Part shown: piece by piece, positions 8,082 to 61,551 of the stretch
Position numbering within the stretch: position 1 is the stretch's first letter
Layout: every line of letters starts with the position of its first letter
From: a virus
Taxonomy: Duplodnaviria; Caudoviricetes
IMG/VR virus record: IMGVR_UViG_3300030107_003029
Span: 1 to 61,551 of that record
Direction: 5' to 3' (one strand)
DNA: 61,551 nt
The notes under the pieces: model-generated
The model's database searches: none
What the model was told of the DNA's origin: nothing
The model's input: the letters and a program-made list of their open reading frames with translations, nothing else
Position numbers and translations under genes: made by a program

Positions 8082-8096
8082 TAAATAATTAACTCT

Positions 8097-8123
8097 GAGT
8101 GGGGTGTAATGACCCCACTCTTT
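8097..8123 (+). terminator. Intrinsic terminator-like hairpin
   Basis: gagtggggt/accccactc then ttt. Confidence 0.65.
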
Positions 8124-8136
8124 AATAGGAGGAAAC

Positions 8137-45626: not shown

Positions 45627-45703
45627 ATAAAATTTTTTTCTTCATATTTGCATTCTTAGGATTGATGACCTTGTTATCAATTTATATGGTAGTTACTTTA
45701 TGA
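45623..45703 (+). CDS. 26-aa single-TM peptide (GTG start)
   Basis: GTGA/ATGA coupling at both ends. Confidence 0.5.
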   Translation: MNKIFFFIFAFLGLMTLLSIYMVVTL

Positions 45704-46044: not shown

Positions 46045-47392
46045 TCTATTCTCTGGACTGGGTGGTTTTTCACTTGGTTTAGAACGTACAGGAAGCTTTG
46101 AAACAGTAGCATTTTGCGACAACGATAAATATAGCAAATTAGTGCTGCAAAAACATTGGAAAGGAGTTAAGATATATAACGATGTCAAAGAAATCACAAA
46201 AGAAAAATTCATTACAGACGGAATTCAATTTCCCGATATCATCACAGGAGGGTTCCCGTGCCAACCGTTCTCGGTCGCAGGCAAACAAGCAGGAACCGAT
46301 GACGACAGACACCTCTGGCCTGTTATGTTTCGAATCATCCAAGAGTTTACCCCGAGGTGGGTTATTGGAGAAAATGTCAAAGGTCTTACTAACATCCAAG
46401 ACGGCGTGGTCTTCGAGACTGTGTGTACTGACTTGGAAGGAGAAGGTTACGAAGTCAGGACGTTCAATATTCCAGCTGCAAGCGTCGGCGCCCCGCATCG
46501 ACGCGAAAGACTCTGGATTGTTGCCCACCGAAAAGAATCTATGGTCAACCCCGACGACATTCGACTCGAACAACATAACACAGCCGAGGAAGAAACATCC
46601 TGGTGGAGGACAAGTACCACCTTTGAACCAACAAGTGATGTGGTTGACACCATCAGCAACGGTGAGGGGCGAGAGATCCCCCGAAGCTATGAAGAGGAGA
46701 GAGGAATACAGGAAGAGCATAGGCAGGACGACAGTTCCGCCAGGCTCACTAGCAGAACAAGTTCAATACGGCAAACCAACAACGGACATGAAGATATGGA
46801 GGACTCCCGACGCACATTGCGACAGGGGACCGAGCTCGGAGAAAAGAATGAAGATGAAGTTAGAGAAGGGTATGCCAATCAGCATCAACGATCAGGTAGC
46901 ACATCCGAATTTGATGTGGCCAACGCCAAGGGCGAACGAACCAGGGAGAACGACGAAGGGTTACGGTCGAGGACTAGCGGAGTTAGTGGAAGGCAAGGAA
47001 CAAGTGGAACCGAAGAAGATGTGGCCAACACCTACGCAAGACTCAGCAACGGAACGTACGAAGAAGTACAGTCAAGGGGGCAAACCATTAACACTAGCAG
47101 TGAAGGAAGCACAGATGTGGCCAACACCGAGAGCAGCGATCGGCATGACAATGAAGCTGTCGCAGGGAATGGCGAATCTTCGACACAAGAAGTATTTGGA
47201 GACGGAAGTAGCGTATCAGGAGAAGGCTCCTGGTGGCACACTGAACCCGACGTGGGTCGAGTGGCTCATGGGGTACCCGGCAGGGTATACAGACTTAAAG
47301 GATTGGGAAATTCTATCGTCCCGAAAATCGCGGAAGAAATCGGCAAAGCCATCATCGAAGCGGAAGGATTAAATGACAGCACCGAATCTTAG
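46025..47392 (+). CDS. dcm: DNA cytosine-5 methyltransferase, alpha-type chain (motifs I-VIII and X, no IX)
   Basis: LDLFSGLGG, GGFPCQPFS, GENV, PHRRERLW, RLKGLGNSIVP. Confidence 0.9.
   Translation: MKLKILDLFSGLGGFSLGLERTGSFETVAFCDNDKYSKLVLQKHWKGVKIYNDVKEITKEKFITDGIQFPDIITGGFPCQPFSVAGKQAGTDDDRHLWPVMFRIIQEFTPRWVIGENVKGLTNIQDGVVFETVCTDLEGEGYEVRTFNIPAASVGAPHRRERLWIVAHRKESMVNPDDIRLEQHNTAEEETSWWRTSTTFEPTSDVVDTISNGEGREIPRSYEEERGIQEEHRQDDSSARLTSRTSSIRQTNNGHEDMEDSRRTLRQGTELGEKNEDEVREGYANQHQRSGSTSEFDVANAKGERTRENDEGLRSRTSGVSGRQGTSGTEEDVANTYARLSNGTYEEVQSRGQTINTSSEGSTDVANTESSDRHDNEAVAGNGESSTQEVFGDGSSVSGEGSWWHTEPDVGRVAHGVPGRVYRLKGLGNSIVPKIAEEIGKAIIEAEGLNDSTES
46182..47372 (+). CDS. Nested +1-frame chain: six WxTP modules plus motif IX (beta-type chain); true start uncertain
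   Basis: 396 open codons inside the MTase; LNPTWVEWLMGYPAGYT resembles motif IX. Confidence 0.75.
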   Translation: MSKKSQKKNSLQTEFNFPISSQEGSRANRSRSQANKQEPMTTDTSGLLCFESSKSLPRGGLLEKMSKVLLTSKTAWSSRLCVLTWKEKVTKSGRSIFQLQASAPRIDAKDSGLLPTEKNLWSTPTTFDSNNITQPRKKHPGGGQVPPLNQQVMWLTPSATVRGERSPEAMKRREEYRKSIGRTTVPPGSLAEQVQYGKPTTDMKIWRTPDAHCDRGPSSEKRMKMKLEKGMPISINDQVAHPNLMWPTPRANEPGRTTKGYGRGLAELVEGKEQVEPKKMWPTPTQDSATERTKKYSQGGKPLTLAVKEAQMWPTPRAAIGMTMKLSQGMANLRHKKYLETEVAYQEKAPGGTLNPTWVEWLMGYPAGYTDLKDWEILSSRKSRKKSAKPSSKRKD

Positions 47393-48203
47393 AATCTTAT
47401 CACTTGGCGCAGGAGTACAAAGCTCAACTCTAGCATTAAAAATAAAACATGGAGAAATTCCTATGGTGGATGCAGCAATCTTCGCCGATGTGAAAGGAGA
47501 GCCTAAAGCCGTTTACACCTGGTTAGAGTGGTTAAAGAAACAGCTAAATTATCCTGTATATACAGTGACTTACAGAGATTTAAGGCAAGATATCCTTGAT
47601 GCTTCAGTTGGAAAATATAAAGCTTTTACCGCACCGTTCTATACTAAAAATTCAGAGACCGGGAAAAAGGGATTACTTCGTCGCCAGTGCACGGCAGATT
47701 ATAAAATAAAACCCGTCGTTAAAAAAGTTAGAGAAATGTTAGGATTAAAATGGGGAGAGAAAAGAAAGAAAGGTACCCGTGTTGAAATGATTATGGGTAT
47801 ATCTATCGATGAAGTTTTTAGAATGAAGACCAATCAAATAAAATATATTACAAATGTTTATCCATTGATTGATGAAAAGTTATCAAGGGAAGATTGTAAA
47901 AAGTGGATGAAAGAAAATGGATATCCAACACCACCTAGATCGGCTTGTACTTTTTGTCCTTATCATTCAACGGAGGAATGGTTAAATGTTAAAAAGAATC
48001 CAGAGGAATGGGCTCAAGTTGTAGCCATGGATAAAGCAATTAGGAACACGGAAAAATTTAAAGATGGTGGAAAGGCTACTAAAGTAAATGATGAATTATA
48101 TTTACATAGAAGTTGTGTACCCATTGATGAAGTAGACTTTGGTAAAGAAGATCCACAAATGGATTTATTCAATTCGGAATGCGAGGGCATGTGCGGGAAT
48201 TAG
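47373..48203 (+). CDS. PAPS-reductase-family (PP-loop, Fe-S Cys) protein, probable DNA-modification enzyme
   Basis: LSLGAGVQSS, RQCT..YKI, GIS.DE, YPL, RSACTFCPY, ECEGMC. Confidence 0.8.
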   Translation: MTAPNLRILSLGAGVQSSTLALKIKHGEIPMVDAAIFADVKGEPKAVYTWLEWLKKQLNYPVYTVTYRDLRQDILDASVGKYKAFTAPFYTKNSETGKKGLLRRQCTADYKIKPVVKKVREMLGLKWGEKRKKGTRVEMIMGISIDEVFRMKTNQIKYITNVYPLIDEKLSREDCKKWMKENGYPTPPRSACTFCPYHSTEEWLNVKKNPEEWAQVVAMDKAIRNTEKFKDGGKATKVNDELYLHRSCVPIDEVDFGKEDPQMDLFNSECEGMCGN

Positions 48204-48555: not shown

Positions 48556-49232
48556 AATGGAATAAAAAATTTGAGTATCCTGAAACCGTTAGGGGAATGG
48601 TTGAAGGTTTAAGACACTACGATATTAATAACGAGAAATTACCGAGTGTTACAACGATTTTGAATAAGACTCAGACAGCCGAGAAAGCTGAAGGGTTAGC
48701 CAATTGGCGAGCTCGAGTAGGCGAGGCAGAAGCACAAAGGATCATGGACCAGGCAGCCCAACGAGGTACTGCGATGCATACCATCTTGGAACATCACATA
48801 TTGGGAAAGAATAGATTAGACTTGACAGATGTCGGTCAACAAGCCCATAAAATGGCTGATGTAGTAATTGAGAAGGGTTTAAGCCACTTAGATGAAATAT
48901 GGGGCAGTGAAGTTGCCCTTTATTACCCAGAATTGTACGCTGGTGCGACAGATTTAGTAGGGGTTTATAAAAACGCCGAAAGCATAATAGATTTTAAGCA
49001 AACAAACAAGCCCAAAAGACGAGAATGGATAGAAGATTATATGATTCAGCTTGGTGCATACGCTATGGCACACAATTATGTATATCAAACCAAGATACAA
49101 CAGGGGGTTGTGCTAATGTGTAGCAAGGATGGGTACTTCCAGGAGTTCATTGTATCCGAAAAGGAGTTCCAAAAATACCAGCATGAATGGCTTAAAAGGG
49201 TTGATTTATATTACAAAAACGCTCAAAAATAG
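48552..49232 (+). CDS. PD-(D/E)XK exonuclease (Cas4/MGME1-like)
   Basis: PSVTTIL, RGT.MH, YAG.TD, IIDFKQ, QL.AY. Confidence 0.88.
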   Translation: MKWNKKFEYPETVRGMVEGLRHYDINNEKLPSVTTILNKTQTAEKAEGLANWRARVGEAEAQRIMDQAAQRGTAMHTILEHHILGKNRLDLTDVGQQAHKMADVVIEKGLSHLDEIWGSEVALYYPELYAGATDLVGVYKNAESIIDFKQTNKPKRREWIEDYMIQLGAYAMAHNYVYQTKIQQGVVLMCSKDGYFQEFIVSEKEFQKYQHEWLKRVDLYYKNAQK

Positions 49233-49298
49233 TCTGTATACTCTACAGATTATAAAATAAAAAAATAAAAAATTTTTTTTTAAAAAGGTACTTTCCGG

Positions 49299-49426
49299 TA
49301 TACAAATGCTAGAAGTAAGCAATACCAACGCTTATTCGCTCAAATTTGTATCCAAATTTGTATACCGCAAATATACAAATTCTAGAATCCTTATATACCA
49401 ACGCTTATTCATCGAAATTTGTATCC
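49299..49426. repeat. Two 55-bp direct repeats at 73-bp period after an A/T tract; candidate replication origin
   Basis: ataccaacgcttattc-NNNN-aaatttgtatcc at 49322 and 49395; tacaaat/atttgta inverted pairs. Confidence 0.7.
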
Positions 49427-49519
49427 GGAGGGTTTTTCAGCGTAGCTGTCTAGGGGACGCGCGCACGGAAAAGGGTTTCAAAAATATTTCATTTTCAAAT
49501 TATCAGTGTATACTAGGGC

Positions 49520-49813
49520 ATGCCTAAAAAACGAAAACTCAATATCTCATCTAGAGAACCAAACCCGATTCCATTTACTAAATACAGAGTAGACTGGATC
49601 GACATCGTTAGTGATTCGGGCTGGGCTGAAGAAAAAGAATTTAATAAGATGAAACTATCAACACCTGTCAATGAAGGTTGGCTTTACTCTAAAGATAAAA
49701 ACTCTATTAAGTTGTTTGCTTCTTATGATCGGGATGAGGATGGCTCTCTGACTTTTGGGGATCGGACGATGATTCCTCTTTCTTGCGTGAAGAAGATGAT
49801 AAAGATTTCATAG
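49520..49813 (+). CDS. Conserved phage hypothetical protein
   Basis: V.W.DI.SDSGW...GW...IP..CV. Confidence 0.75.
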   Translation: MPKKRKLNISSREPNPIPFTKYRVDWIDIVSDSGWAEEKEFNKMKLSTPVNEGWLYSKDKNSIKLFASYDRDEDGSLTFGDRTMIPLSCVKKMIKIS

Positions 49814-50285
49814 GTGCGGCTAATTCTTTTTTAACTTTCTTTAATTCCGTTTCTTCATCATAGATAACTTTCATTTTTGTTCTAAGTTCTTCGGTTGTAA
49901 GATCATCTAACTTGCCTGTACGCATTTCAGTTCTGTTAATATATAGATCTGACGCTTTACCTCTTAACTCTTCTGCTCTAATTGCCGCTTGCATGTTGCC
50001 TTTCTTTTCAGATTTAATCCCTAGATTTCCGAGTCTTGCTACGTGGTTTTCGTAGTTGACTTCAAACTTTGAAAGCTTGTCTCTTCTGAGTTCCGTCAGG
50101 TAGGCTACTACCTTTGGATATTTCTTATAGTTCTGTAGTTCTGAAGCTGTGAATCTAGCTCTATCTACGCTGTATCCTGCTTGAATTGCGGCTTCCGTTC
50201 CTGTGACTGGTCCTTCTTTACCGCCATAAACCAGGATTTCGCAGAATTTCATCTGCATTTCTGTTAATCTACTTGGTACTCCCAT
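49707..50285 (-). CDS. terS: Terminase small subunit
   Basis: LTEMQ.KF...T.AAIQAGYS..A...ASEL....P.V..Y; AAIRAEELRGK. Confidence 0.8.
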   Translation of the reverse strand: MGVPSRLTEMQMKFCEILVYGGKEGPVTGTEAAIQAGYSVDRARFTASELQNYKKYPKVVAYLTELRRDKLSKFEVNYENHVARLGNLGIKSEKKGNMQAAIRAEELRGKASDLYINRTEMRTGKLDDLTTEELRTKMKVIYDEETELKKVKKELAAPMKSLSSSSRKKEESSSDPQKSESHPHPDHKKQTT

Positions 50286-50322
50286 ACTTGCAATATATCC
50301 TATATAGTTTATAAATCAATAT

Positions 50323-50550
50323 ATGACAGGAAAGGAATTAGCACAAGTATTAAACAAGTTCTTAAAATCGCCTGTAGCTCAAAATGCTAGGGTTCAAATT
50401 GAAATGCCCAATGGCGAAATGCTTGATGTCTATGAGATACAACTCTTAGAGAATAGACTTATAGGCGACCGGGATACCCACCGAATTAACATCAAAGGCC
50501 AGGCTAAATTAGGCACTTGGAAGATGGGTAAAATAATTGGAAAATTATAA
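50323..50550 (+). CDS. Hypothetical protein
   Basis: Divergent from terS, promoter-like upstream. Confidence 0.7.
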   Translation: MTGKELAQVLNKFLKSPVAQNARVQIEMPNGEMLDVYEIQLLENRLIGDRDTHRINIKGQAKLGTWKMGKIIGKL

Positions 50551-50559
50551 ATTATCTTC

Positions 50560-50590
50560 TTGACATTTAAGTCATAAAATCCCATATTAT
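50560..50590 (+). promoter_or_regulatory. Promoter with TTGACA and TCATAAAATCCCATA box
   Basis: 15-bp box identical to that in the minus-strand promoter at 53008-53036. Confidence 0.65.
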
Positions 50591-50611
50591 CTGAATGAAA
50601 GGAAAAATAAT

Positions 50612-50878
50612 ATGAGCAGTCATAGTTACGAAACAGAATGTCCAAATTGTTCAAAAGAAATGACAAGTTGCCAGGAAAGTAAACCGATAGATTATACTAC
50701 TAGCGAATGTGTAAATTGTGGTTTCTATGTAGTGGCAAGAAGTGGATTTATGTCATTAGCAGATTTAAATGAAGCAAGAGGTCATTTTGATGAAAAACCA
50801 TTAAAGGAACTACCTAAACAAGACAAGAGTCTTTTTAATTTTGTTCCTGAATTATATGAATCAATGGAAGGTAAATAA
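50612..50878 (+). CDS. Zinc-ribbon hypothetical protein
   Basis: CPNC...CVNCG; GAAAGGA RBS. Confidence 0.7.
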   Translation: MSSHSYETECPNCSKEMTSCQESKPIDYTTSECVNCGFYVVARSGFMSLADLNEARGHFDEKPLKELPKQDKSLFNFVPELYESMEGK

Positions 50879-51060
50879 TGAAAAATAAATACTTATACAA
50901 AGTAGAAAGAGAACGAGTTGTTACTGATTGGTGGTATGTGGAAGCCTACGATGAAGTGGAGGCAAAAATTAAAGCGTTTGCTTCAGAAGTAGATGACTCT
51001 GATTATGGTAATAATATTAAAGTAATAGCAGAAAGATTGGAGGAGATTAATGAAAAATAA
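50878..51060 (+). CDS. Hypothetical protein
   Basis: TAATG coupling. Confidence 0.65.
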   Translation: MKNKYLYKVERERVVTDWWYVEAYDEVEAKIKAFASEVDDSDYGNNIKVIAERLEEINEK

Positions 51061-51466
51061 AATCAAACTTACAGGTGTAGAACTTAATTGTATTGAGATT
51101 GCAGTACAACATCATATAGATGAGTTAGAGGATGCACTTGCAGATACAGGTACAGGTTGGAAATCTGCCTATAAAAAAGATGAATATAAATCTTTAAAGG
51201 AAAGATTAAAAGCAACCAAATCAGTTAAAGATAAATTATGGAATCTTAGTGGATTGATAGATGATTTAGAACAATCACATTATCCTGTAACAGCACAACA
51301 AGTTGCTAAATTTACAGACACTTATGATTACGGGGATTCTGATTCCTGGATTGCAGATATTCTTAATGCAGAGGTAAATATACCTAAATTAAGACATGCA
51401 ATAAGAGGCTTGGATGAAAAAAATCCAGGCGATGTAAAATATTTATATAGAAAGGAGGTAGAATAA
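51050..51466 (+). CDS. Hypothetical protein
   Basis: GGAGG RBS. Confidence 0.7.
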   Translation: MKNKIKLTGVELNCIEIAVQHHIDELEDALADTGTGWKSAYKKDEYKSLKERLKATKSVKDKLWNLSGLIDDLEQSHYPVTAQQVAKFTDTYDYGDSDSWIADILNAEVNIPKLRHAIRGLDEKNPGDVKYLYRKEVE

Positions 51467-51735
51467 TGGAATATCAATTACTAAAAAGAACTAAATATTC
51501 AGGAAGTACTCCTGATAGTTTAGTACATCAGAAAACTTCAAAGACTCTTAGGAAAGCTATTGAGTATAAAATAGCCCTAGAGAACTTGTTAGAAGATTAT
51601 GAAAAAGACAGAGCATCTTTTGAAATCTGCATTAAATTAGATGATGCATTCAAATATGTGACAGAAGGTTCTGAAAAATTAGATAAAGAAGAACCTGAAG
51701 AAGAAGTTAAAGACGATAAAATTGTAAATTTCTAA
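51466..51735 (+). CDS. Hypothetical protein
   Basis: AGGAGG RBS, coupling. Confidence 0.7.
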   Translation: MEYQLLKRTKYSGSTPDSLVHQKTSKTLRKAIEYKIALENLLEDYEKDRASFEICIKLDDAFKYVTEGSEKLDKEEPEEEVKDDKIVNF

Positions 51736-51779
51736 AAAACTTCTAGCCAAATGACTTCGGTTGTGTTACTGCAAAAAAG

Positions 51780-52162
51780 TGGTACGACCGGAGTCAAAAT
51801 TATATGCAGATCTTAAAAAAATCACTCCACAAATTAAGTGGACACGCCTTGAAAATTGGGCTTTATTTGGCACTCCTGACCTATTGGGCTATTCTCCTAA
51901 TCACAACTTTTTTACAGTAGAGTTAAAAGTAACAAAACGCAACAAAGTGGCTATATCCCCGCACCAGGTTGCGTGGCATATGAGCCATGGTCCTGGCACC
52001 TTCGTGCTTGTGCGTTCTTTAGATAAAAAAAATAAAAAAAATTTTAATTGCTATCTTTACCCTGGTTCCCGGATCCTGGAACTGGTTGAACTGGGTTTGA
52101 ACCTTGAACCGCTGGTTCTTGGTTCGCTTGAGGATTGTGCTTGTCACCTGCGTGATCTCTAG
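51780..52162 (+). CDS. VRR-NUC/Holliday-junction resolvase-like nuclease (start approximate)
   Basis: ES.LY..L, RLE, GTPDL, VELK, SPHQ..W. Confidence 0.78.
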
Positions 52163-52227
52163 CTTGTGCCTGTAGTCTAGAGGGAGGGGGTGGGGGGGAT
52201 TCAGCTTGAGCCTGTGCTTGTAGTCTA
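52162..52227 (+). repeat. GCYTGTGCBTGTAGTCTA repeat family, cluster 1 (52162, 52210)
   Basis: Direct observation. Confidence 0.85.
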
Positions 52228-52299
52228 GCTTGTGCTTTTAACTTTTTCCAATAGTTTGGGTGTTTCCAAGTGAATGACATAGTAACCGGTCCTGGTTGC

Positions 52300-52905
52300 T
52301 TAGTGCTTGCCGTACTTAACATGTTTAACGGCAGGATTCCAGCAAGCTCTACAGCTTAGACACTTTCCGCCTTGCTTTGGTGCCGGGCAGGTCTCGCTGC
52401 CGTCAGTCACCACGCTACTGCTGTGCGTCCAGGCCTTGGGCTCTGGTCCGTTGATCTTGGAACTTGACAACCTAATGACCAAATTGGCAGGGACTTCTCC
52501 CGGGTCAATTGCCATCAAATATTGTCGCTCTTGAGTTGGCAACCAGTGCCGGGTCCCTGGTGTGTTGTTGCATACTTCGAAGATCTGGCGCAGGTGCTCA
52601 ACGCTCTGGATGTCTCCGGCATCGTGCCACCTGAAGACTTCAAAGCCTGTGACCAATGCCGTCATAGCATCAACCCACAGTGGATTTTCCAGGCTGTCTA
52701 GCCTTCTGTATTGGGCTGCCTTAATTGCTGGATATCTTGCGTAGTTGCCTTTAAAGGCATAACAGCCAAAGCAGGGCGTGCCCGGGATCTTCCGTAGCTT
52801 TGCACCTGTTTGGCACATGTCCGCTGGCAAGCTGTAACTAAAGCCCGGCATTTTGCTGGTACGCGTTAGCCCGTGGACTATTTTTTTAGCGTCTTTTTTT
52901 AACAT
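52300..52905 (-). CDS. GP88-family (radical-SAM-like Cys) protein
   Basis: SKMPG.S.SLPA..C..G......C..CYA, FRWHDAGD, HWLPT, C..C.ACW. Confidence 0.8.
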   Translation of the reverse strand: MLKKDAKKIVHGLTRTSKMPGFSYSLPADMCQTGAKLRKIPGTPCFGCYAFKGNYARYPAIKAAQYRRLDSLENPLWVDAMTALVTGFEVFRWHDAGDIQSVEHLRQIFEVCNNTPGTRHWLPTQERQYLMAIDPGEVPANLVIRLSSSKINGPEPKAWTHSSSVVTDGSETCPAPKQGGKCLSCRACWNPAVKHVKYGKH

Positions 52906-52928
52906 TTTTTATATTCTCACTTTCTAAA

Positions 52929-53001
52929 GACCAGGGCAATACCGAACTGCAAAGCTGTTCTGGACTATTGCTGCTAAATATCTTTAGCTCCGTGCCTGAT
53001 C
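52929..53001 (-). ncRNA. 73-nt three-way-junction RNA starting at predicted +1 of a consensus promoter
   Basis: P1 GAUCAGG/CCUGGUC, P2 GCUAAA-GAUA-UUUAGC, P3 GCAAUA/UAUUGC with extension. Confidence 0.55.
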
Positions 53002-53007
53002 AAATTC

Positions 53008-53036
53008 TTTATATATGGGATTTTATGAACTGTCAA
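53008..53036 (-). promoter_or_regulatory. Promoter TTGACA-gttcataaaatcccata-TATAAA
   Basis: Consensus with 17-nt spacer. Confidence 0.8.
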
Positions 53037-53050
53037 ATAAAAAATTACTA

Positions 53051-53552
53051 CGCGAGCCGGGCTTCCGGCGTGGCGCTCGCTTGTGCTTGTAGTCTAAAAA
53101 AATAAAAAAATTTTACAGATTAAGTGCGTGAGCCCTGTAGCAGCCAACTGGGTCCGCTGTGTGCTTGTGCTTGTAGTCTAAATAAAAAATAAAAAAAAAT
53201 AGCAGAAACATCACGCAACGGAACCAGATCTGCTTGTGCGTTCTGCGTGAGGCACGCAAAAAATGGAGGTCCAGCTAGGTCGTTCTGCGTGAGAAGGTGA
53301 TGAGGTGCGTGGTGGTCCCTGCCGGTTGCTGTGTGTTTCTGCGTAAGAAGGTGATAAGGTGCGTGGCGCTCACGGGCGCTTGCTTGTGTGTTTTGCTCCA
53401 AAACTTCAGTTATCAGGCGTGAGGTACGCATAGGTCCCTGAGCTGTGCTAGGTGTTTCTGCTTGTGCGTTGAATTTTTTCATAGTTTATTGTCGTGAGTT
53501 AAGCAATTACCAATGTGGTTGCTTGTGCGTTTCTGCTTGTGCCTGTGCCTTA
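53051..53552 (+). repeat. Repeat-rich non-coding block: GCTTGTGCTTGTAGTCTA (53079, 53163), many GCTTGTGC, 30-bp repeat at 53283/53337
   Basis: Direct observation; phased A-tracts. Confidence 0.85.
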
Positions 53553-53574
53553 AACATAAAAATAAAAAATAAAA

Positions 53575-53600
53575 CCCCTACAATCAAAGATTGTAGGGGG
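53575..53600. terminator. Hairpin cccctacaatc-aaa-gattgtagggg, U-rich tail on minus strand
   Basis: 11-bp perfect stem. Confidence 0.7.
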
Positions 53601-53780
53601 TAGAAAGGTGCGAAAGGGCAACACCCGATATTTTATATGGTTTCGCCATCTTTCCCTATTTAAAGGGTTTTAGTTGCCTTTAGGTCTTTCACAATATCCT
53701 ATATAATAACATTTTATTTTTTTTCAATATTTGATATAAGAATAGTGCAAATCAATTTAACGATTTGCAGAAAGGTAAAA

Positions 53781-54761
53781 ATGGCTAGAGTGAAAAATAA
53801 TAATGAGTATCGTACAAAGGTCGGAAACCTTATGCGAAACGCATTAGAGAGTAATCCTAACAATAAAAAAATGTTAGATTATTCAAACACACTAGAGCAA
53901 GTCAAAGTAGATTATAAAAACTATTTTGACAAAGCAAAAACGATTGTCAAAAGGGCATATCCAAAAGAACATTGCGATACTTTGCAGTATTTCAAAGGTT
54001 TGTATGGAAGTCCTTGTGATGTTGTTGCTGATGATAAGTGCTACTACTTTGCCTATACTGATGAAGATAGTGTAGATGAAGATGGGCAACCTATTCAAAA
54101 TCAAAAACATTTTGATTTTAGAATAAATGGTAGTCTAAATGGTAGTGAGTATAATCACAATAACGAGTTTGCTTATGCGTATTTTCGTGATGAGATGAAA
54201 GCAAATAATCTCAACGCAGATATAAACATAGAGCAAGAGGACAATCAAAACAATCCACACTTACAAAAACATACTGACGCAAACAATAAGTTTTTGGGAT
54301 TAAGTAATCGTAGCGAGGATAATGTAAGTCTTGCTAGAGAATTTAATGACCAATTCTGTTGTGATGTAATCGGTACGAGTTATTGTAGGTCAAGGGCTAT
54401 TGCTTGTACTAAAGATGAATTTTTAGAAATGGAAAAATTTCTAATGATGAAATCTGAATTAGTACGAACTCATAGAGATTGGATAAAAAGTGTCGTTGAT
54501 GATATGAAAGATATCAAAGGGGCATTAAAATCTTATCGTTATCTTGATGAGGCAATAGAACTTGCTAACTCAACATTTGAGGCATTAGGTCTTGATACTA
54601 GACTTGAAGAAAGTCAAATTATCAGAACTAATTCCACAGGATTAACTTTATATAATCCTGAAAATGTTGCGTCTAGGATTGCAGAAAGACATAAAGCGAA
54701 AATGACAAGAGAGGAAAAAATCGCTTTATTTAAACAATCTCAATCTAGTGTTATGAACTAG
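53781..54761 (+). CDS. First early gene, hypothetical (start ATG 53781)
   Basis: AGAAAGGTAAAA-ATG RBS; IGTSYC.SR.I.C motif. Confidence 0.8.
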   Translation: MARVKNNNEYRTKVGNLMRNALESNPNNKKMLDYSNTLEQVKVDYKNYFDKAKTIVKRAYPKEHCDTLQYFKGLYGSPCDVVADDKCYYFAYTDEDSVDEDGQPIQNQKHFDFRINGSLNGSEYNHNNEFAYAYFRDEMKANNLNADINIEQEDNQNNPHLQKHTDANNKFLGLSNRSEDNVSLAREFNDQFCCDVIGTSYCRSRAIACTKDEFLEMEKFLMMKSELVRTHRDWIKSVVDDMKDIKGALKSYRYLDEAIELANSTFEALGLDTRLEESQIIRTNSTGLTLYNPENVASRIAERHKAKMTREEKIALFKQSQSSVMN

Positions 54762-54771
54762 GTTGAAATAA

Positions 54772-54799
54772 GTTAGGGGGAGTATATACTCCCCTTAAC
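54772..54799. other. Intergenic hairpin gttagggggagt/actccccttaac
   Basis: Near-perfect inverted repeat just before RBS. Confidence 0.55.
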
Positions 54800-54811
54800 A
54801 GAAAGGTAAAA

Positions 54812-54979
54812 ATGAGAACACAAATAAGCGACTATGAACTGATTACTTTCTTTAATAATCTAAAAGAGATTATTCAAGCACAGAAAGAACTTAATCATGT
54901 TCTTGCAAAAAGAATAACTAATCTTGAAAATAGATTAGAAAAACTAGAACAAAAAGAAAGGGGTCAAGATGTTGTTTAA
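54812..54979 (+). CDS. 55-aa coiled-coil early protein (missed by ORF track)
   Basis: Same cagaaaggtaaaaATG leader as 53781. Confidence 0.75.
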   Translation: MRTQISDYELITFFNNLKEIIQAQKELNHVLAKRITNLENRLEKLEQKERGQDVV

Positions 54980-55304
54980 GAGAGGCGATAGATTTACTCT
55001 AGTTGTTAAAAACGACACGCATAATGGTAATCCGAATAAATTTACTATGTTGCGTTATGGTATTTTTGATAAACAAAGTAAATTTCTAGTTTCCAAAAAC
55101 CAATTAACTTTTTTTGATACGACTAGAAAGGATTATCGTCGTATGAAATTGTCTAATATTTTTGGAATAACAAATATTACTAGGTTAGATGAAGAACAAG
55201 AAAATCAAACACCTACAAATATTTGTAGAGCAAAAACTTGCAACAATTCTTTGATGGGGTGGACTTCAAAATCTGACCCAAGATATTGTGAGGATTGTCT
55301 ATGA
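54969..55304 (+). CDS. Early hypothetical protein with C-terminal Cys cluster
   Basis: FFD....YR motif; C...C...C..C. Confidence 0.7.
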   Translation: MLFKRGDRFTLVVKNDTHNGNPNKFTMLRYGIFDKQSKFLVSKNQLTFFDTTRKDYRRMKLSNIFGITNITRLDEEQENQTPTNICRAKTCNNSLMGWTSKSDPRYCEDCL

Positions 55305-55429
55305 TACCTTTAGAAATAAAAGTAATTATTCTCGCTACTTTAGTGATGGGAATATTGTTGTACCTTGATGAACGCAAGATAAAAAAAGAAAGACAAAGGC
55401 AAGAAAGGTTGAACAAGATAAAATGGTAG
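55301..55429 (+). CDS. 42-aa TM peptide (missed by ORF track)
   Basis: ATGA coupling, GAGG. Confidence 0.55.
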   Translation: MIPLEIKVIILATLVMGILLYLDERKIKKERQRQERLNKIKW

Positions 55430-55710
55430 AAAAAAATATCTGTCAAAACCCTAAATGTTTTGAAAGTCATACAAAGGATAGGTGGAATAAAAAAATAGGT
55501 AGGTATCAATCAAGAAAGGCATATTTTAAACCTAACCATACAAATCGCTATGGTTATTCTTGCTCTATCCTTGAATTTTTTTGTACAACAAGTTGTGCGA
55601 ATACATGGCTAGAGGATAATCTTGAAAACATCATTGAACGAAAACATTGTCCGAATAAAATAGTTGAAAAATTAAATGGAATAACAAGAGAGCAAGGTCT
55701 AGTAGATTAA
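55423..55710 (+). CDS. Early Cys-containing hypothetical protein
   Basis: CQNPKC...FCTTSC. Confidence 0.7.
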   Translation: MVEKNICQNPKCFESHTKDRWNKKIGRYQSRKAYFKPNHTNRYGYSCSILEFFCTTSCANTWLEDNLENIIERKHCPNKIVEKLNGITREQGLVD

Positions 55711-55725
55711 GGTAATTGGACTTTT

Positions 55726-55761
55726 AAACGACAAGCGAGAAATCGCTTGTCGTTTTTTTTT
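55726..55761 (+). terminator. Intrinsic terminator
   Basis: aaacgacaagcga-gaaa-tcgcttgtcgttt + long T tract. Confidence 0.9.
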
Positions 55762-55779
55762 GCGTGTTTTGTAAAAATC

Positions 55780-55956
55780 GCTTGTAGTCTGAAAAAATTT
55801 TCTTCCATATCTCAACGCACATTAAGATTTTAAACTTTTTTGATACAAGGGTAAGGGCAAAAAAATGCTTGTTCTCTAAAAATCTATGCTTGTGCGTGTA
55901 GTCTATTTAAAAGAAAATAATTTTTTTTAGTCCAATTTGCTTGTGCCTGTAGTCTA
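55780..55956 (+). repeat. GCYTGTGCBTGTAGTCTA repeat family, cluster 3 (55888, 55939, partials 55780, 55867)
   Basis: Direct observation, same strand as other clusters. Confidence 0.85.
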
Positions 55957-56109
55957 AACATAAAGAAAAAAAATAAAAAAAGAAAAAAATAAAGAAAAAT
56001 AAAAAAAGCTCTATAGCTGCCCTGCTAAAATTTTCTTAAACCCTTGTTAAGATACTTGACCTATAAGGGCTAGTAATGGTACAAGATGAATAGAAAGTGA
56101 GAAATAAAT

Positions 56110-56274
56110 ATGAAAAAAATAAGATCTAAAAAAAATAATCTTTTAAATTACTTTATTTGTAATCATAAAGATTTAAGTAAACAGTATTTAAAAAGTTGTA
56201 ATCAATTTTTTAAATCATTAAAAGAAAAACAAAGAAAGGAAAAAGAAAATGAAAACAAAAAAAGAAACAATTAA
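56110..56274 (+). CDS. 54-aa early protein (missed by ORF track)
   Basis: AGAAAGTGAG RBS; TTGACC promoter-like upstream. Confidence 0.6.
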   Translation: MKKIRSKKNNLLNYFICNHKDLSKQYLKSCNQFFKSLKEKQRKEKENENKKRNN

Positions 56275-56443
56275 TATTTCTTCAACATGGGAAAATGTTT
56301 TACCGCAAATGGTAAGATTATATTCTTCATTAAATAGTGATGGAAAAAAAGAAGTATTAAGAAGAATGACGGTAATAGGTAAAATAGTTGATAAGTGCAA
56401 AGTGTTAAAAAAAGAAAGGAAAAATAAATATGAAACTAAATAA
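56249..56443 (+). CDS. Early hypothetical protein
   Basis: AGAAAGGA RBS. Confidence 0.65.
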   Translation: MKTKKETINISSTWENVLPQMVRLYSSLNSDGKKEVLRRMTVIGKIVDKCKVLKKERKNKYETK

Positions 56444-56633
56444 AGACGACTTAAGAAATAAAGAAATTATTCTTGAGTTAAAAAATGTTTATGGCAAAGA
56501 TTTAATATATCCATCTTGCCATATTGCTAATGCAATGATTAAATTAAAAGCAGGAAAAACATTTACTAAAAATGATTTAAATGTTTTTAAAGCTCTAGGT
56601 TTAATTATTAAATGGAAAGCAGGGCAGCTATGA
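56430..56633 (+). CDS. Early hypothetical protein (KNVYG..LIYP...KT)
   Basis: AGAAAGGA RBS. Confidence 0.7.
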   Translation: MKLNKDDLRNKEIILELKNVYGKDLIYPSCHIANAMIKLKAGKTFTKNDLNVFKALGLIIKWKAGQL

Positions 56634-56845
56634 ATAAAGATGATTTTAAAAAAATAAAAGATGGTTTTTATTCTGCTATGCAAGATGCAATAAATAAAGG
56701 TTTAATCAAAGTTATCATAAATGATAATGGAGAAAGAATTGTTGAAATTATTGCAAGTGAAGAAGAAATAAAACAAGCTTATTTGAATGATGATGATTTA
56801 TCAGATGAGCAGAAAGGAAAAATAAAAAATGATGATACTAACTAA
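56630..56845 (+). CDS. Early hypothetical protein (start ATG 56630)
   Basis: ATGA coupling. Confidence 0.6.
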   Translation: MNKDDFKKIKDGFYSAMQDAINKGLIKVIINDNGERIVEIIASEEEIKQAYLNDDDLSDEQKGKIKNDDTN

Positions 56846-57137
56846 AGCAATTAAAGAAAAATTAATTGCAAATCATAAAAAACAAATAGAGGGAAAAACT
56901 CATTATGAGTTTAAAGCTGTGTTAAAGCTTTTTAATCCAACAGGTATCGGCACATGGTATCTGTCGGAATTAGATCCTGAAACTAATATGGCATTCGGTT
57001 TATGTTGCTTAACTGAAAAAGAGTTAGGTTATGTAAATCTAGATGAATTATTATCTTTCAAAGGTCGAATGGGATTAGGAATTGAAAGAGATAAATTCTT
57101 TAAACCTAAAACATTAGATGAGTGTAGATCTTTATGA
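56829..57137 (+). CDS. DUF2958-like protein
   Basis: KLF.P.G..TWYL.E....AFGL....ELGYV.L.EL...IERD..F. Confidence 0.85.
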   Translation: MMILTKAIKEKLIANHKKQIEGKTHYEFKAVLKLFNPTGIGTWYLSELDPETNMAFGLCCLTEKELGYVNLDELLSFKGRMGLGIERDKFFKPKTLDECRSL

Positions 57138-57310
57138 GTGATACATTAAACAAAAAAGAAATAAAAAGATTAATTGAGTTAGGTAAATCAATTATGCTTT
57201 GTTTAGATTGTGATATCAATGGGACAGGTTTACCTTGTCGCACTGATAGGTTAGCATCTGTAAGATATATGATTGAATATTTAAAAATACATAACTACAA
57301 AATAAATTAA
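57134..57310 (+). CDS. 58-aa early protein (missed by ORF track)
   Basis: ATGA coupling; ends before terminator. Confidence 0.55.
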   Translation: MSDTLNKKEIKRLIELGKSIMLCLDCDINGTGLPCRTDRLASVRYMIEYLKIHNYKIN

Positions 57311-57325
57311 ATCATTAATTAAATT

Positions 57326-57358
57326 ACAGGCGACACTTGCGTGTCGCCTGTTTTTTTT
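57326..57358 (+). terminator. Intrinsic terminator
   Basis: acaggcgacac-ttgc-gtgtcgcctgt + T tract. Confidence 0.9.
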
Positions 57359-57571
57359 CGTCCAAAATTTCACACAATATAAGAGTATACTTTAGTATTC
57401 CTTATATTATTTAAAGATAAGAGTCTTTAGTCCTTTAATAGAGGTACCAAGGATAGTATCAAATTAGTATTGATTAATAATCTTAAATCATCTAAACTCA
57501 AAAGGGATCCTAAACTTAAGACTAAAGTCAAGGATTTATACAGTCAGAGGGACTAAAATCCCAACTCACTT

Positions 57572-59047
57572 ATGACCAAAAAGAAAAAAAATATTATAAA
57601 AAATTTTGAGAACCCGGATAACGAAAGAGAATATTTATTAGCAGCATTAAAGTTGAAACAACGAGAAAAGGAGTCTCTTGTTAAGAATGACTTCCTGGCG
57701 TTTGTTAAACATATGTGGCCTGAGTTTATAGAAGGGTACCATCACAAAGTCATAGCCGATAAATTTAATAAATTGGCTACAGGCGAAATCAAGAGACTTA
57801 TTGTCAATATGCCCCCTAGACATACCAAGTCAGAATTTGCTTCCAACTATTTACCTGCTTGGATGATTGGGAAGAACCCTAAATTAAAAATAATTCAAAC
57901 GACCCACACAGCAGAACTTGCTGTAAGGTTTGGTCGTAAAGCTAAACATCTAATTGATTCTCCTGAGTATCAGGAAGTATTTAAAACTAGACTTCAAGAA
58001 GATTCCAAAGCAGCAGGAAGATGGGAAACCGAAGGCGGAGGAGAATACTTCGCGGCTGGTACAGGCGGAGCGATCACTGGTCGTGGTGCTGATCTATTAA
58101 TCATTGACGATCCACACAAGGAACAAGATGCATTGAGTAAAGAAGGTTTTGATAAAGCTTTTGAGTGGTATACTTCAGGACCTAGACAGCGTCTTCAACC
58201 AGGAGGTTCCATTGTAATTGTAATGACTCGTTGGGCTACTAAAGATTTAACAGGTAGACTGATACAATCTCAAAAAGAAATTAAAGGTGATCAATGGGAA
58301 GTTATTGAGTTCCCAGCAATCATGCCAAATGGAAAACCTGTATGGCCAGAGTATTGGAATATAGATGAATTAGAAACTCAGAAAGCATCTTTACCCGTTA
58401 AGAAATGGAATGCTCAGTTTATGCAACAACCGACAGCGGACGAAGGAGCAATTATTAAACGAGAGTGGTGGAGAGATTGGCCTGATGACAACCCTCCTAG
58501 AGTGGATTACATTATACAATCTTATGATACAGCTTTCTTGAAAAAGGAATCTGCTGACTATTCAGCTATTACAACCTGGGGCGTGTTCCGTGATGATGAC
58601 GGCGGGATTCATATAATCCTGTTAGATGCTGAGAAAGACCGGTTCGAGTTCCCCGAGCTTCGACGCGTGGCTCATGAATCATATCTCTTTTGGCGACCTG
58701 ATATGGTTTTAATCGAGGCCAAAGCTTCAGGGATTCCATTGACTCACGAATTAAGGAACATGGAAATTCCAGTAGTCAATTTCACTCCTTCCAAAGGAAA
58801 CGATAAACACGTTAGAGTTAATTCAGTTGCACCTTTTTTTGAAAGTGGTAGAGTATGGGCTCCTATGCATAAGCAATATGCACAGGAAGTTATCGAGGAA
58901 TGTGCAGCGTTCCCGAATGGAGATAACGATGACTACGTTGACTCGATGACTCAAGCAGTAATGAGATTGAGGCAAGGAGGATTCTTAAGACACCCGGAGG
59001 ATGCAAAAGAAGTCACGGTCCGGGGATCAAGGGTATATTATGGTTAA
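57572..59047 (+). CDS. terL: Terminase large subunit
   Basis: NMPPRHTKS, ITGRGADLLIIDDP, MTRW, SYDTA, IEAKASG, FPNG.NDD.VDS. Confidence 0.96.
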   Translation: MTKKKKNIIKNFENPDNEREYLLAALKLKQREKESLVKNDFLAFVKHMWPEFIEGYHHKVIADKFNKLATGEIKRLIVNMPPRHTKSEFASNYLPAWMIGKNPKLKIIQTTHTAELAVRFGRKAKHLIDSPEYQEVFKTRLQEDSKAAGRWETEGGGEYFAAGTGGAITGRGADLLIIDDPHKEQDALSKEGFDKAFEWYTSGPRQRLQPGGSIVIVMTRWATKDLTGRLIQSQKEIKGDQWEVIEFPAIMPNGKPVWPEYWNIDELETQKASLPVKKWNAQFMQQPTADEGAIIKREWWRDWPDDNPPRVDYIIQSYDTAFLKKESADYSAITTWGVFRDDDGGIHIILLDAEKDRFEFPELRRVAHESYLFWRPDMVLIEAKASGIPLTHELRNMEIPVVNFTPSKGNDKHVRVNSVAPFFESGRVWAPMHKQYAQEVIEECAAFPNGDNDDYVDSMTQAVMRLRQGGFLRHPEDAKEVTVRGSRVYYG

Positions 59048-59189
59048 ACGATTAACCTTAACAATTCCACCATTAAGAGGACCTGACCCACAAGGGTTGA
59101 ATATTCCTTCAAAACAAGTTAAAACAATCAAACTGGAGAAATTAAATGGTAAAAAGCCTAAGACAAATCTACAAAGAATCAAGAAATAA
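59040..59189 (+). CDS. Small protein with PPLRGPDPQGL motif (start ATG 59040)
   Basis: Overlaps terL stop. Confidence 0.55.
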   Translation: MVKRLTLTIPPLRGPDPQGLNIPSKQVKTIKLEKLNGKKPKTNLQRIKK

Positions 59190-59358
59190 AAGAGGTTATA
59201 AAGGCTCTTGGGATGATTTTAAATCCGATTTTGGTAATTCAGAAGAATATTTTTTTGATAGCATTGGAGATTGGAGAAAGTGGAGAAACAAAAAAGGATA
59301 TGAATCTGGTGGACTCATTAAAGGCAAACCAAAATTAGCAAAAAAAGGTTGGAATTAA
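59146..59358 (+). CDS. Small basic protein ending YESGGLIKGKPKLAKKGWN
   Basis: GGAG RBS; C-terminus shared with 2475..3098. Confidence 0.7.
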   Translation: MVKSLRQIYKESRNKRGYKGSWDDFKSDFGNSEEYFFDSIGDWRKWRNKKGYESGGLIKGKPKLAKKGWN

Positions 59359-61551
59359 ATGGCAGATCAAGACAACATCGACAAGGCATTGCCGAACGTC
59401 GAACAAACCGTAACTATACCGCCTGAAGAAGAAATCGTAGAAGCACAAGAAACGATTAAAGAATCAGCGCCTGGTGAACCTGAAGTTGTTGAACAGGAAG
59501 ACGGTTCTGTTGATATTAATTTTGAACCAGGGGCCGTGAACCAAGCAGGCTCGGAAGATCATTACACTAACTTAGCAGAATTATTACCCGACGATGTTTT
59601 AGATAAAATCGGCGGCGATCTCTTTGGAGATTATACAGAATATAAAAATTCTAGATCAGAGTGGGAACAAACCTACACTAAAGGTCTAGATCTTTTAGGT
59701 TTCAAATACACTAACCCGTCGCAACCTTTTGAAGGTGCTTCGGGCGCTACGCATCCTGTCCTCGCTGAAGCTGTAACTCAGTTTCAGGCAGGGGCGTACA
59801 AAGAATTATTACCCGCAGATGGTCCTGTCAGAACTCAGATTCTAGGAAACATTAACCAACAGAAACAGGAACAAGCAACTCGGGTTAGAGATTTTATGAA
59901 TTATCAACTCATGGATCAAATGAAGGAATATGAACCTGATTTTGATCAAATGCTCTTTTACCTCCCTCTTGCCGGCTCTGCTTTTAAGAAAGTCTATTAT
60001 GACGAAATTTTAAGCAGAGCGGTTTCTAAATTTGTACCCGCTGATGATTTAATTGTACCGTACACAGCAACATCTTTAGAAGATGCAGAAGCAGTAATGC
60101 ATACGGTTAAGATGTCAGAAAATGATTTAAGAAAGCAACAGCTTTCAGGATTTTATTTAGATATCGATATTAAACCAGGCTACGATACAGAAACTCCGGT
60201 TGAGAAAAAGGAAAGAGAATTAGAAGGAGTTCGTAGATCAGGTAGAAACGAAGATGTATTTAGATTAGTTGAATGCCATGTCAATCTTGACCTTGAAGGG
60301 TTTGAAGATAAAGATGACACAGGCGATATGACAGGAATTAAATTACCTTACATTGTAACAATCGATGAAGGTTCAAGAAAAGTTTTATCTATTAAAAGAA
60401 ACTTCAAAGCAGACGATCCACTAAAACAAAAGATCCAATATTTTGTCCATTTCAAATTTCTTCCAGGACTTGGGTTTTACGGTTTTGGTTTGATCCATAT
60501 GATTGGTGGCCTCTCTCGAACAGCGACAACTGCGCTACGCCAATTACTTGATGCGGGTACGTTATCCAATCTACCCGCCGGGTTTAAACAAAGAGGGATT
60601 CGTGTACAAGATCAAGCACAATCCATACAACCAGGAGAATTTAGAGATGTCGATGCTCCAGGTGGAAACATTAGAGATGCATTTATGCCTCTACCTTTCA
60701 AAGAACCATCGGCAACATTATTACAACTAATGGGAATAGTTGTCCAAGCAGGACAAAGATTTGCATCTATTGCTGATATGGCTGTGGGTGATGGTAATCA
60801 ACAGGCTGCAGTTGGTACAACGGTTGCTCTTTTAGAAAGAGGTTCTCGTGTAATGTCAGCTATTCATAAAAGATTATACGTTGGATTAAAACAAGAATTC
60901 AAATTACTTGCACATATTTTTAAAACTTATTTACCAAATGAATATCCTTACGATGTAGTGGGTGCACAAAGAACAGTTAAGGTTCAAGACTTCGATGATA
61001 AGATTGATATTATCCCGGTTGCTGATCCTAATATCTTTTCTCAAACTCAAAGAATTAGTGTTGCTCAAACAGAATTACAATTAGCACAATCAAACCCTGG
61101 AATGCATAACTTATACGAAGCGTATAAACATATGTATCAAGCGATTGGTGTTAAAGATATTAATTTAATATTACCACCACCACAGCCACCTGTACCAACA
61201 GATCCTGTTACAGAAAACATGATGGCTTTAGCAGGTAAACCTTTTCAAGCTTTTCCAAAACAAGACCATAGAGCTCACATTGATTGTCACTTAGCATTCA
61301 TGGGAACGAACATGGCAAGAAACAATCCCATGATCCTTGGTGCTTTGGAAAAGAATATTTTTGAACATATTAATTTGATGGCTCAAGAACAAGTTGAATT
61401 AGAATTTAGAGATGAGTTCGTTAGGTTCCAGGAAATACAACAGAACCCTGCAGCTGTTCAACAGAACCCACAATTACAACAAGTCTTACAACAATTCAGT
61501 ATTAAAGTTGAAGCAAGAAAAGCTAAACTAGAAGCTGAGATGATGGAAGAA
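59359..61551 (+). CDS. Portal protein (about 836 aa including 1..495); absent from ORF track because it runs off the end
   Basis: ATG 59359 open to end; HPVLAEAVTQFQA, GSAFKKVYYD, GLGFYGFGL, AGTLSNLP; follows terL. Confidence 0.93.
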   Translation, partial: MADQDNIDKALPNVEQTVTIPPEEEIVEAQETIKESAPGEPEVVEQEDGSVDINFEPGAVNQAGSEDHYTNLAELLPDDVLDKIGGDLFGDYTEYKNSRSEWEQTYTKGLDLLGFKYTNPSQPFEGASGATHPVLAEAVTQFQAGAYKELLPADGPVRTQILGNINQQKQEQATRVRDFMNYQLMDQMKEYEPDFDQMLFYLPLAGSAFKKVYYDEILSRAVSKFVPADDLIVPYTATSLEDAEAVMHTVKMSENDLRKQQLSGFYLDIDIKPGYDTETPVEKKERELEGVRRSGRNEDVFRLVECHVNLDLEGFEDKDDTGDMTGIKLPYIVTIDEGSRKVLSIKRNFKADDPLKQKIQYFVHFKFLPGLGFYGFGLIHMIGGLSRTATTALRQLLDAGTLSNLPAGFKQRGIRVQDQAQSIQPGEFRDVDAPGGNIRDAFMPLPFKEPSATLLQLMGIVVQAGQRFASIADMAVGDGNQQAAVGTTVALLERGSRVMSAIHKRLYVGLKQEFKLLAHIFKTYLPNEYPYDVVGAQRTVKVQDFDDKIDIIPVADPNIFSQTQRISVAQTELQLAQSNPGMHNLYEAYKHMYQAIGVKDINLILPPPQPPVPTDPVTENMMALAGKPFQAFPKQDHRAHIDCHLAFMGTNMARNNPMILGALEKNIFEHINLMAQEQVELEFRDEFVRFQEIQQNPAAVQQNPQLQQVLQQFSIKVEARKAKLEAEMMEE
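61375..61551. repeat. Terminal direct repeat, copy 2
   Basis: Matches 1-177. Confidence 0.97.

Follow-up and report, generated by a model that had tools for sequence, protein, structure and literature searches.

Here, we propose that a short block of DNA in a marine phage genome has been kept free of restriction targets by selection. The block is the island at positions 53445..56006 of the window analysed here, a stretch of 61,551 bp that is the whole of the IMG/VR record IMGVR_UViG_3300030107_003029. The phage is of the HTVC023P-type pelagiphages, its large terminase subunit (TerL) being 68% identical to the TerL of the Pelagibacter phage HTVC027P. The island lacks all 12 of the words that we counted (AGCT, GATC, TCGA, ACGT, CCGG, GGCC, GCGC, CGCG, GANTC, CCNGG, GCNGC, and GGNCC), with 0 sites seen where 43.6 are expected. 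The evidence for selection against restriction targets in an early-type unit is good, and we hold with about even confidence the fuller reading that this is a selected site-free unit, most likely read from unprotected DNA at the start of infection. Selection against restriction cleavage itself we consider nearly certain, on the grounds that unrelated palindromes have been removed by codon choice, that the sites surviving in relatives are lineage-specific, and that the pattern has been kept over deep divergence. The island forms a single transcription unit, made up of a TATAAT promoter block, five genes (encoding proteins of 326, 55, 111, 44, and 95 residues), and a terminator. It probably needs to act while the phage is still exposed to host enzymes.

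The boundaries of the purge were first described from the letters of the window (hereafter, the sequence-only reading), which reported zero counts for AGCT, GATC, GANTC, CCGG, GGCC, GCGC, CCNGG, GCNGC, GGNCC, and TCGA; every one of these was correct on recount. AGCT, which occurs 246 times in the window, is absent from 53445-56006 and has its nearest copies at 53441 and 56007. GATC (179 in the window) does not occur between 53227 and 56123, nor GANTC (171 in the window) between 52335 and 57421, and TCGA has 92 sites elsewhere in the genome with 0 in the island. The palindromes that were said to persist do so (CTAG 15 times, GTAC 6, and TGCA 6), as does CATG, with 2 copies. The wide GANTC gap needs qualification, being literally true and yet not significant outside 53445-56006; the wider TCGA and ACGT gaps are likewise not significant beyond the island, because the DNA there is AT-rich. 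CTAG is enriched within the island, at 15 copies against 5.9 expected from a first-order model and 10.9 from a second-order model.

Chance is rejected as the cause of this absence, which lies far beyond it. The expectation of 43.6 comes from a first-order Markov model with the island's own composition, so the depletion, which the sequence-only reading had allowed might lose significance once composition was modelled, survives that modelling. The flanks are at expectation, with 20 sites against 21.9 in 52940-53444 and 15 against 19.0 in 56007-57571. Across the whole window the 12 words have 1193 sites, the longest gap between them is 2566 bp, and the second longest is 468 bp; in 100 simulations that kept the local composition, the longest gap had a mean of 415 bp and a maximum of 675 bp. 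One-kb windows outside the island range from 0.51 to 1.35 of expectation. The purge is confined to 4% of the genome, the other 96% being at or above expectation.

Could the island be an artefact of composition, of amino-acid content, or of recent import from a phage whose whole genome is poor in palindromes? It is AT-richer than the genome as a whole (31% against 37% GC), and some other 2.5-kb windows also miss rare GC-rich words. Local Markov models and codon-preserving shuffles nevertheless reject this explanation. With the proteins held fixed, codon resampling gave a mean of 28.0 sites under genome usage and 26.7 under island usage, and permuting synonymous codons within each of the five genes gave a mean of 23.8. 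The minimum over the codon shuffles was 11 sites, and the observed 0 was not reached in any of 2000 replicates; for nine control genes, the counts agreed with the codon-shuffle expectations. The absence also extends to further restriction-type words, namely CCAG/CTGG (7.2 expected), ACGG, CCGC, and CGGC, and 6-mer palindromes flanked by G/C number 1 in the island against 6.9 expected. Since the 12 words were chosen post hoc, we also counted all 16 four-base palindromes: 7 are absent from 2562-bp scan windows overlapping the island and 8 from the exact region, against at most 5 elsewhere in the genome (a value reached at 36.5-39 kb). By this unbiased count the island is still the extreme of the genome, with a smaller contrast.

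The same pattern is found in relatives. A second scan yielded 101 loci with a homologue of the first gene of at least 250 residues, of which 94 were left after dropping identical coding sequences. In these, the coding sequence of the 326-residue protein holds 490 sites against 1562 expected (0.31), and the distal flanks hold 8116 against 6688 (1.21). All but two of the 94 homologous coding sequences fall below 0.7 of expectation, the exceptions being those of loci L078 (0.81) and L054 (1.02). An earlier set of 27 loci gave 182 sites against 479 (0.38) for this gene and, at the same loci, 1128 against 947 (1.19) for the terminase. Depletion is kept across protein identities of 27-93%, and the unit is syntenic in the related contigs, having diverged along with its flanks; both facts speak against an artefact. 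We therefore give an artefact next to no credence. The purge that the sequence-only reading had described is real, sharply bounded, and under selection (0 against 43.6 here; depleted in 92 of 94 relatives), and these comparisons show that it is inherited and has been kept while the sequence diverged.

Its shape is best seen in the profile averaged over the 94 loci, with their start codons aligned. Between -1000 and -300 there are 48-59 sites per kb; at -100 the figure is 2 per kb, within the gene it is 2-9 per kb, and by +2000 it is back to about 25 per kb. The drop takes place within about 300 nt before the start codon, and the nearest upstream site lies at a median of 175 nt before the ATG. 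The upstream edge is therefore sharp and conserved, and the downstream edge varies with operon length. In the same 94 loci, the zone at -1000 to -300 is GC-richer and has 1.4-1.5 times the expected sites, such that site-rich DNA abuts site-free DNA.

The most complete and longest purge of all is the one in this window. Homologous islands retain a few sites (6 against 40.8 expected in L007, 12 against 40.4 in L010), and the clade of L018-L025 retains about 24 against 45, almost only GATC, TCGA, and AGCT; the remainder of each related locus is at or above expectation. Such lineage-specific survival is as expected if different hosts carry different enzymes.

A different account of the same words is that methylation, and not cleavage, is being avoided, the words being those of host orphan methyltransferases (GANTC/GAWTC, GATC) or of the C5 methyltransferase of the phage, and the benefit being either undisturbed expression or escape from methyl-dependent (Type IV) nucleases. 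SAR11 genomes have CcrM-type methylation at GANTC/GAWTC, words that are under-represented in them, and the commonest methylation sites of marine viral genomes, RGCY, CCNGG, and GGWCC, coincide in part with the words purged here (PMC8919816). In this phage, moreover, the C5 methyltransferase gene adjoins a PAPS-reductase-like gene. Set against this, at least 12 unrelated words and several 6-mers are missing, far beyond what one or two methyltransferases would account for, and three other units with the same promoter motif as the island keep these words. The lineage-variable surviving sites also fit varying nucleases better than they fit a conserved regulatory methylase. We consider methylation avoidance improbable, if less so than an artefact.

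As to the unit itself, the sequence-only reading had spoken of an operon of small genes, and this is supported: the purge covers a self-contained set of small genes, of no recognised function, behind a promoter block containing TATAAT. The promoter-like block (53690..53707, plus strand) ends in a TATAAT some 75 nt upstream of the start codon and is nearly invariant in an alignment of 7 relatives. It was recognised from that alignment and not from a consensus sigma-70 scan, which found no excess of promoters (22 against 21.2 expected) and none upstream of the first gene. The promoter-like word AWATCCYATATWDW has 4 copies in the genome against 0.12 expected, at 50295-50308, 50577-50590, and 53694-53707 on the plus strand and at 53010-53023 on the minus strand, each just upstream of a gene start. 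To judge by the shared word, this looks like a single promoter class confined to 50.3-53.7 kb. The minus-strand copy has a TTGACA 17 nt upstream of its TATAAA.

Downstream of the promoter block, a hairpin in the 5' leader (53746..53769, plus strand; RNA fold -9.2 kcal/mol, z -2.2) adjoins the ribosome-binding site of the first gene, and at one position of its stem, 2 of 7 sequences have a G-T pair and 1 of 7 has an A-T pair in place of G-C. A second hairpin, with a perfect stem, lies between genes 1 and 2 (54772..54799, plus strand; inverted repeat I22, with 14-nt arms that are 93% complementary). The unit is closed by an intrinsic terminator with a 13-pair stem followed by a T run (55726..55755, plus strand), and a terminator-like hairpin with a T run lies on the minus strand just inside the left edge (53575..53599).

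Two plus-strand direct repeats of 41 nt (family D3), 85% identical to each other, bracket the unit at 53534..53574 and 55938..55978. Each consists of a 20-nt motif followed by an A-rich tail, the left copy having a variant of the motif. The motif itself has six copies (52162-52181, 52210-52229, 53079-53098, 53163-53182, 55888-55907, and 55939-55958), with variants at 53535 and 55780; they occur on the plus strand only and are confined to 52162-55958, where 0.02 would be expected. In 8 of 82 related loci the copies occupy the same relative positions, and the motif is more strongly conserved than the DNA on either side of it. It could be a binding site for the terminase or a regulator, a recombination site, or an element of an origin. 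Metagenome contigs from one run (49000-61551) link motif-adjacent places in other orders, joining 52042 to 53556 and 55926 back to 53556, which suggests either relatives with a rearranged cassette region or ambiguity in aligning the repeats.

Is it then the gene or the place that is kept free of sites? Of 20 loci in which the DNA upstream of the terminase extends for 3.5 kb or more, 15 encode the 326-residue protein, and 3 of the 5 relatives that lack the gene carry other purged cassettes of small genes upstream of TerL. These are found in L070 (5 sites against 20.2), L062 (9 against 27.5), and L049 (45 against 81.6), with flanks near expectation; the other two, L033 and L068, show little depletion. 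The L070 cassette (5755-8151) is a leftward run of eleven tightly packed small open reading frames (ORFs) on the minus strand. Among cultured phages, the window of gp35, the HTVC027P homologue of the first gene, is the lowest in the first 50 kb of that genome (5 against 15.9). HTVC033P, of a different pelagiphage type, has a 30% identical homologue among small genes upstream of its primase and helicase, and its ratio of observed to expected sites climbs from 0.57 in the early arm (first 7 kb) through 0.69 among the replication genes to 1.13 in the late structural arm. Taken together, these comparisons show that the purge belongs to the place as well as to the gene, and that it marks early-type small-gene cassettes and not one gene.

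The same findings can be put to another use. The locus upstream of the terminase might be a site at which small accessory or anti-defence cassettes are exchanged, and a restriction-proof cassette that is swapped between phages of different hosts might have been purged so as to work in many restriction backgrounds, or else so as to stay expressible on a fragment once the genome is cut; genome entry would then take place in one step, with no genome end nearby. The different gene sets purged at one locus (L070, L062, and L049), the direct repeats and motif arrays that bracket the unit, the metagenome contigs that join motif copies in other arrangements, and the homologue in an unrelated pelagiphage type would all be in keeping with this, as would terminase relatives that may be headful packagers. 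One-step entry, on the other hand, would expose about 1190 other sites to cutting, so that a purge of 2.5 kb would gain little. Nor does the first gene behave as a sporadic passenger: it is syntenic and core-like, and its divergence tracks that of the terminase. We regard a swapped cassette without ordered entry as possible, although on the unlikely side.

What, then, might the island do for the phage? The mechanism that we favour is that selection keeps the unit free of the short palindromes cut by Type II-like enzymes, the rest of the genome being normal; that host RNA polymerase would read it from unprotected DNA at the very start of infection, either because it enters first as a leading segment or because it is merely expressed first; and that its products would then shield the remaining genome or take over the cell. 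We infer restriction as the selecting agent, as well as the earliness of the unit, ordered entry, and protective proteins. The phage encodes a single C5 methyltransferase, no N6/N4 methyltransferase was detected, and its GATC, GANTC, and TCGA sites elsewhere are hence without obvious self-protection. This C5-only set fits the logic of a leading region, as do the conserved TATAAT block and a weak hint from one metatranscriptome run, in which RNA contigs lie on the first gene (53767-54709, depth 18-42) with almost nothing elsewhere in 49-61.5 kb; contigs cannot rank expression. HTVC027P encodes no RNA polymerase according to a study of that phage, which also reports that all of its early genes are of unknown function, that its temporal classes are interleaved along the genome, and that gp33 and gp34, the left-hand neighbours of gp35, are early-to-middle (PMC12753301).

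First injection of the island DNA is, by analogy, plausible but unproven. The sequence-only reading proposed a left genome end near 53450-53560, a position taken from the edge of the purge, which the data here do not support. Our read data were assembled contigs (24 runs found, four mapped) with no usable depth, and no physical end was seen in them. A stronger version, which we offer only tentatively, is that ordered delivery exposes a segment of about 2.5 kb first and that the family of the 326-residue protein, with its zinc-finger-like partners, is a new and widespread device for anti-restriction or SAR11 takeover. Were this so, the first-exposed 2.5 kb or so (about 4% of the genome) would be about the size of a headful terminal redundancy or of a short T5-like repeat, a correspondence to which we attach no great confidence.

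Several observations count against early reading and ordered entry. Three other units that have the same promoter motif (at 50295, at 50577, and at 53010 on the minus strand) are undepleted, with 35 sites against 37.4 and 33 against 29.1 expected. HTVC023P itself is without a detectable homologue or a strong island, its lowest 1-kb window having 4 sites against 9.9. DNA contigs run unbroken over both edges of the island (51793-54032 and 54967-57167), and among 61 relatives contig ends are evenly spread, with no pile-up upstream of the gene. Relatives of the terminase found by tblastn include T1-like coliphages, Klebsiella phages, and cluster-B-type mycobacteriophages. These are generally headful packagers, and headful packaging does not set which part of the genome is injected first. 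Among solved structures, the only relatives were two large-terminase chains (E 2e-4 and 5e-4), which we take to be those of T7. Deriving a packaging type from the terminase was abandoned, as the relatives are too mixed and too distant; if packaging is headful and runs for few rounds, the 4% or so of the genome next to pac might still be what normally enters first. The 326-residue protein is not acidic and matches no known anti-restriction family, and its gene, being core-like (15 of 20 loci) and well conserved, is unlike typical fast-changing anti-defence genes. Finally, SAR11 hosts are described as typically without defence systems, which were present in 8 of 24 cultured strains (PMC13712998).

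The five proteins offer few clues from similarity. The first (53781..54761, plus strand), homologous to HTVC027P gp35, has 6418 homologues at E<=0.001 in a large protein collection (228 cluster representatives), and no Pfam domains were found among them. Two residues, C202 and R205, do not vary among 28 aligned sequences; both fall within a conserved stretch, DVIGTSYCRSR. Its AlphaFold2 model is confident (pLDDT 83.3, pTM 0.78). Structural comparison gave no match in the PDB by Foldseek (best E 0.16), a best Z of 6.0 over 69 residues in a wide VIA-align search (under that tool's noise guide), and only uncharacterised viral proteins in BFVD. A PDB sequence profile search had its best E of 0.012 over a short stretch, and the best score in the ESM Atlas was 0.84, to unnamed viral clusters. 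If the reading of a new device is true, the predicted fold of this family may be new as well, which we consider doubtful rather than probable.

The second gene (54812..54979, plus strand) has the same ribosome-binding site as the first and encodes a 55-residue protein that is predicted to be helical, with a homologue in 1 related locus. It is followed, also on the plus strand, by genes for a basic protein of 111 residues with four C-terminal cysteines (54969..55304; homologues in 10 loci), a 44-residue protein with a hydrophobic segment (55295..55429; 8 loci), and a cysteine-rich basic protein of 95 residues (55423..55710; 13 loci). The 111-, 44-, and 95-residue proteins are basic and the 55-residue protein is near neutral, with an isoelectric point of 6.56. 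The 326-, 55-, 111-, and 95-residue proteins had no Pfam match at E<=0.001, the single match of the 55-residue protein (E 0.0037) being below the cut-off and unrelated. A PHROG scan of all five gave only weak matches, to families of unknown function or of holins, those of the 44-residue protein among them; the 326-residue protein had no match there. Known anti-restriction families (Ocr, ArdA, ArdB/KlcA, and similar) had no sequence match among the proteins scanned against Pfam. The idea that the first protein is an acidic DNA mimic was rejected, its isoelectric point being 5.64, with 52 acidic and 45 basic residues. An anti-restriction role for it is plausible but unproven, and comes from context only.

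The surroundings of the island can be described briefly. The record is given as 98% complete and of class linear. A gene for an SU10-type portal is split over both of its ends (1-495 and 59359-61551); since it runs off the 3' end and resumes at the 5' end, the contig was opened at an arbitrary point, and the record is a circular or permuted assembly opened within the portal gene. Replication genes (AEP primase, UvrD helicase, and PolA) come first in the gene order, followed by a LAGLIDADG-like ORF, the C5 methyltransferase, the PAPS-reductase-like gene, and an exonuclease, then by a weak match to a small terminase (minus strand), small genes, and a GP88-family gene (minus strand), and finally by a GC-richer repeat region of 500 bp, the island, six small genes, the large terminase, and the portal.

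To the left of the island, the GP88-family gene (52300..52905, minus strand; Pfam PF17338, E 2.6e-27), a homologue of HTVC027P gp33, is read divergently and is not depleted (33 sites against 29.1). CCNGG is strongly over-represented on this side, with 11 copies against 2.5 expected in 50300-52299 and 11 against 2.7 in the region of the GP88-family gene (52300-52939). The GC-richer, non-coding repeat region (52940..53444) has a site density that is normal to high; a minus-strand ORF of 120 residues at 53120-53482 was rejected as a gene, having 53% amino-acid identity where the DNA is about 86% identical. To the right, an undepleted downstream unit (56110..57310, plus strand) holds the six small genes, one of them a DUF2958 gene, with a terminator at 57326-57351, and is followed by the large terminase subunit (57572..59047, plus strand; Pfam Terminase_6C/6N). 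A megablast search of 52000-58000 against cultured phages returned no match, nor did Rfam and tRNA scans of the whole window.

Further away, 45700-48203 is a possible DNA-modification module made up of the LAGLIDADG-like ORF, the C5 methyltransferase, and the PAPS-reductase-like gene; the methyltransferase has 455 residues with an extra C-terminal part, and the PAPS-reductase-like gene (PHROG 424) overlaps its neighbour in the module. At 12157-16474 there are three consecutive paralogues (458, 486, and 493 residues), each with a C-terminal Pfam Gly_rich_2 domain.

The HTVC023P-type pelagiphages have been described as the most abundant known group of ocean phages, and relatives of this phage infect Pelagibacter HTCC1062. 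The signature, present in 92 of 94 relatives, marks out a single small unit that would have to survive host nucleases unaided, gives a ranked short list of candidate genes for counter-defence or takeover, and yields a testable prediction, namely ordered genome entry. The surviving sites that differ between lineages are indirect evidence of diverse restriction pressure in SAR11; if the reading of ordered delivery and a new device is true, SAR11 phages are under more restriction pressure than would be expected from the sparse defence repertoire of SAR11. As the signature can be computed from the genome letters, it could help to locate the first-working DNA of uncultured phages generally.

The avoidance of restriction sites in a leading or early region is of a kind already known, from T5, Murciavirus, and conjugative plasmids. 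New are the phage group, the completeness of the purge and its small size (one operon, 4% of the genome), its near-universality over 94 relatives, and the large unknown protein family to which it points; a literature search, which was only indirect, found no report of a restriction-free island in pelagiphages. In phages, as in surveys cited in PMC12455610, short palindromes can be under-represented genome-wide through synonymous codon choice as a means of avoiding restriction. The palindrome classes are the same here, and the island differs in that the avoidance covers only 4% of the genome.

The analogy with T5 and other leading regions, which the sequence-only reading had drawn, is a published concept. 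In T5 and in the T7-like Murciavirus only the motifs that are injected first matter, the products of that DNA then neutralising restriction, and T5 turns EcoRI-sensitive when a site arises in its first-step-transfer block (PMC12455610). The likeness to T5 lies in a bounded early block without restriction targets, in a genome that otherwise has them, and in flanking repeats. The T5 block differs in being about 10 kb long and in lying within a mapped terminal repeat, followed by a demonstrated pause in injection, whereas the island is 2.6 kb long, and its five proteins are without a Pfam or PHROG match at E<=0.001.

Murciavirus is similar in that the leading region alone sets sensitivity and carries variable, anti-defence genes (PMC12455610), to which the alternative purged cassettes described here may be compared. 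Its case concerns one Type I motif, fixed genome ends, and transcription-driven entry (PMC12455610), and differs from the island, where at least 12 Type II-like palindromes have been purged, in a group of podoviruses of which HTVC027P, for one, has no RNA polymerase gene (PMC12753301). The leading regions of conjugative plasmids are also depleted of restriction targets and have anti-defence genes clustered in the DNA that enters first (PMC12455610); the difference is that the transfer of a plasmid starts at a defined origin and delivers a single strand.

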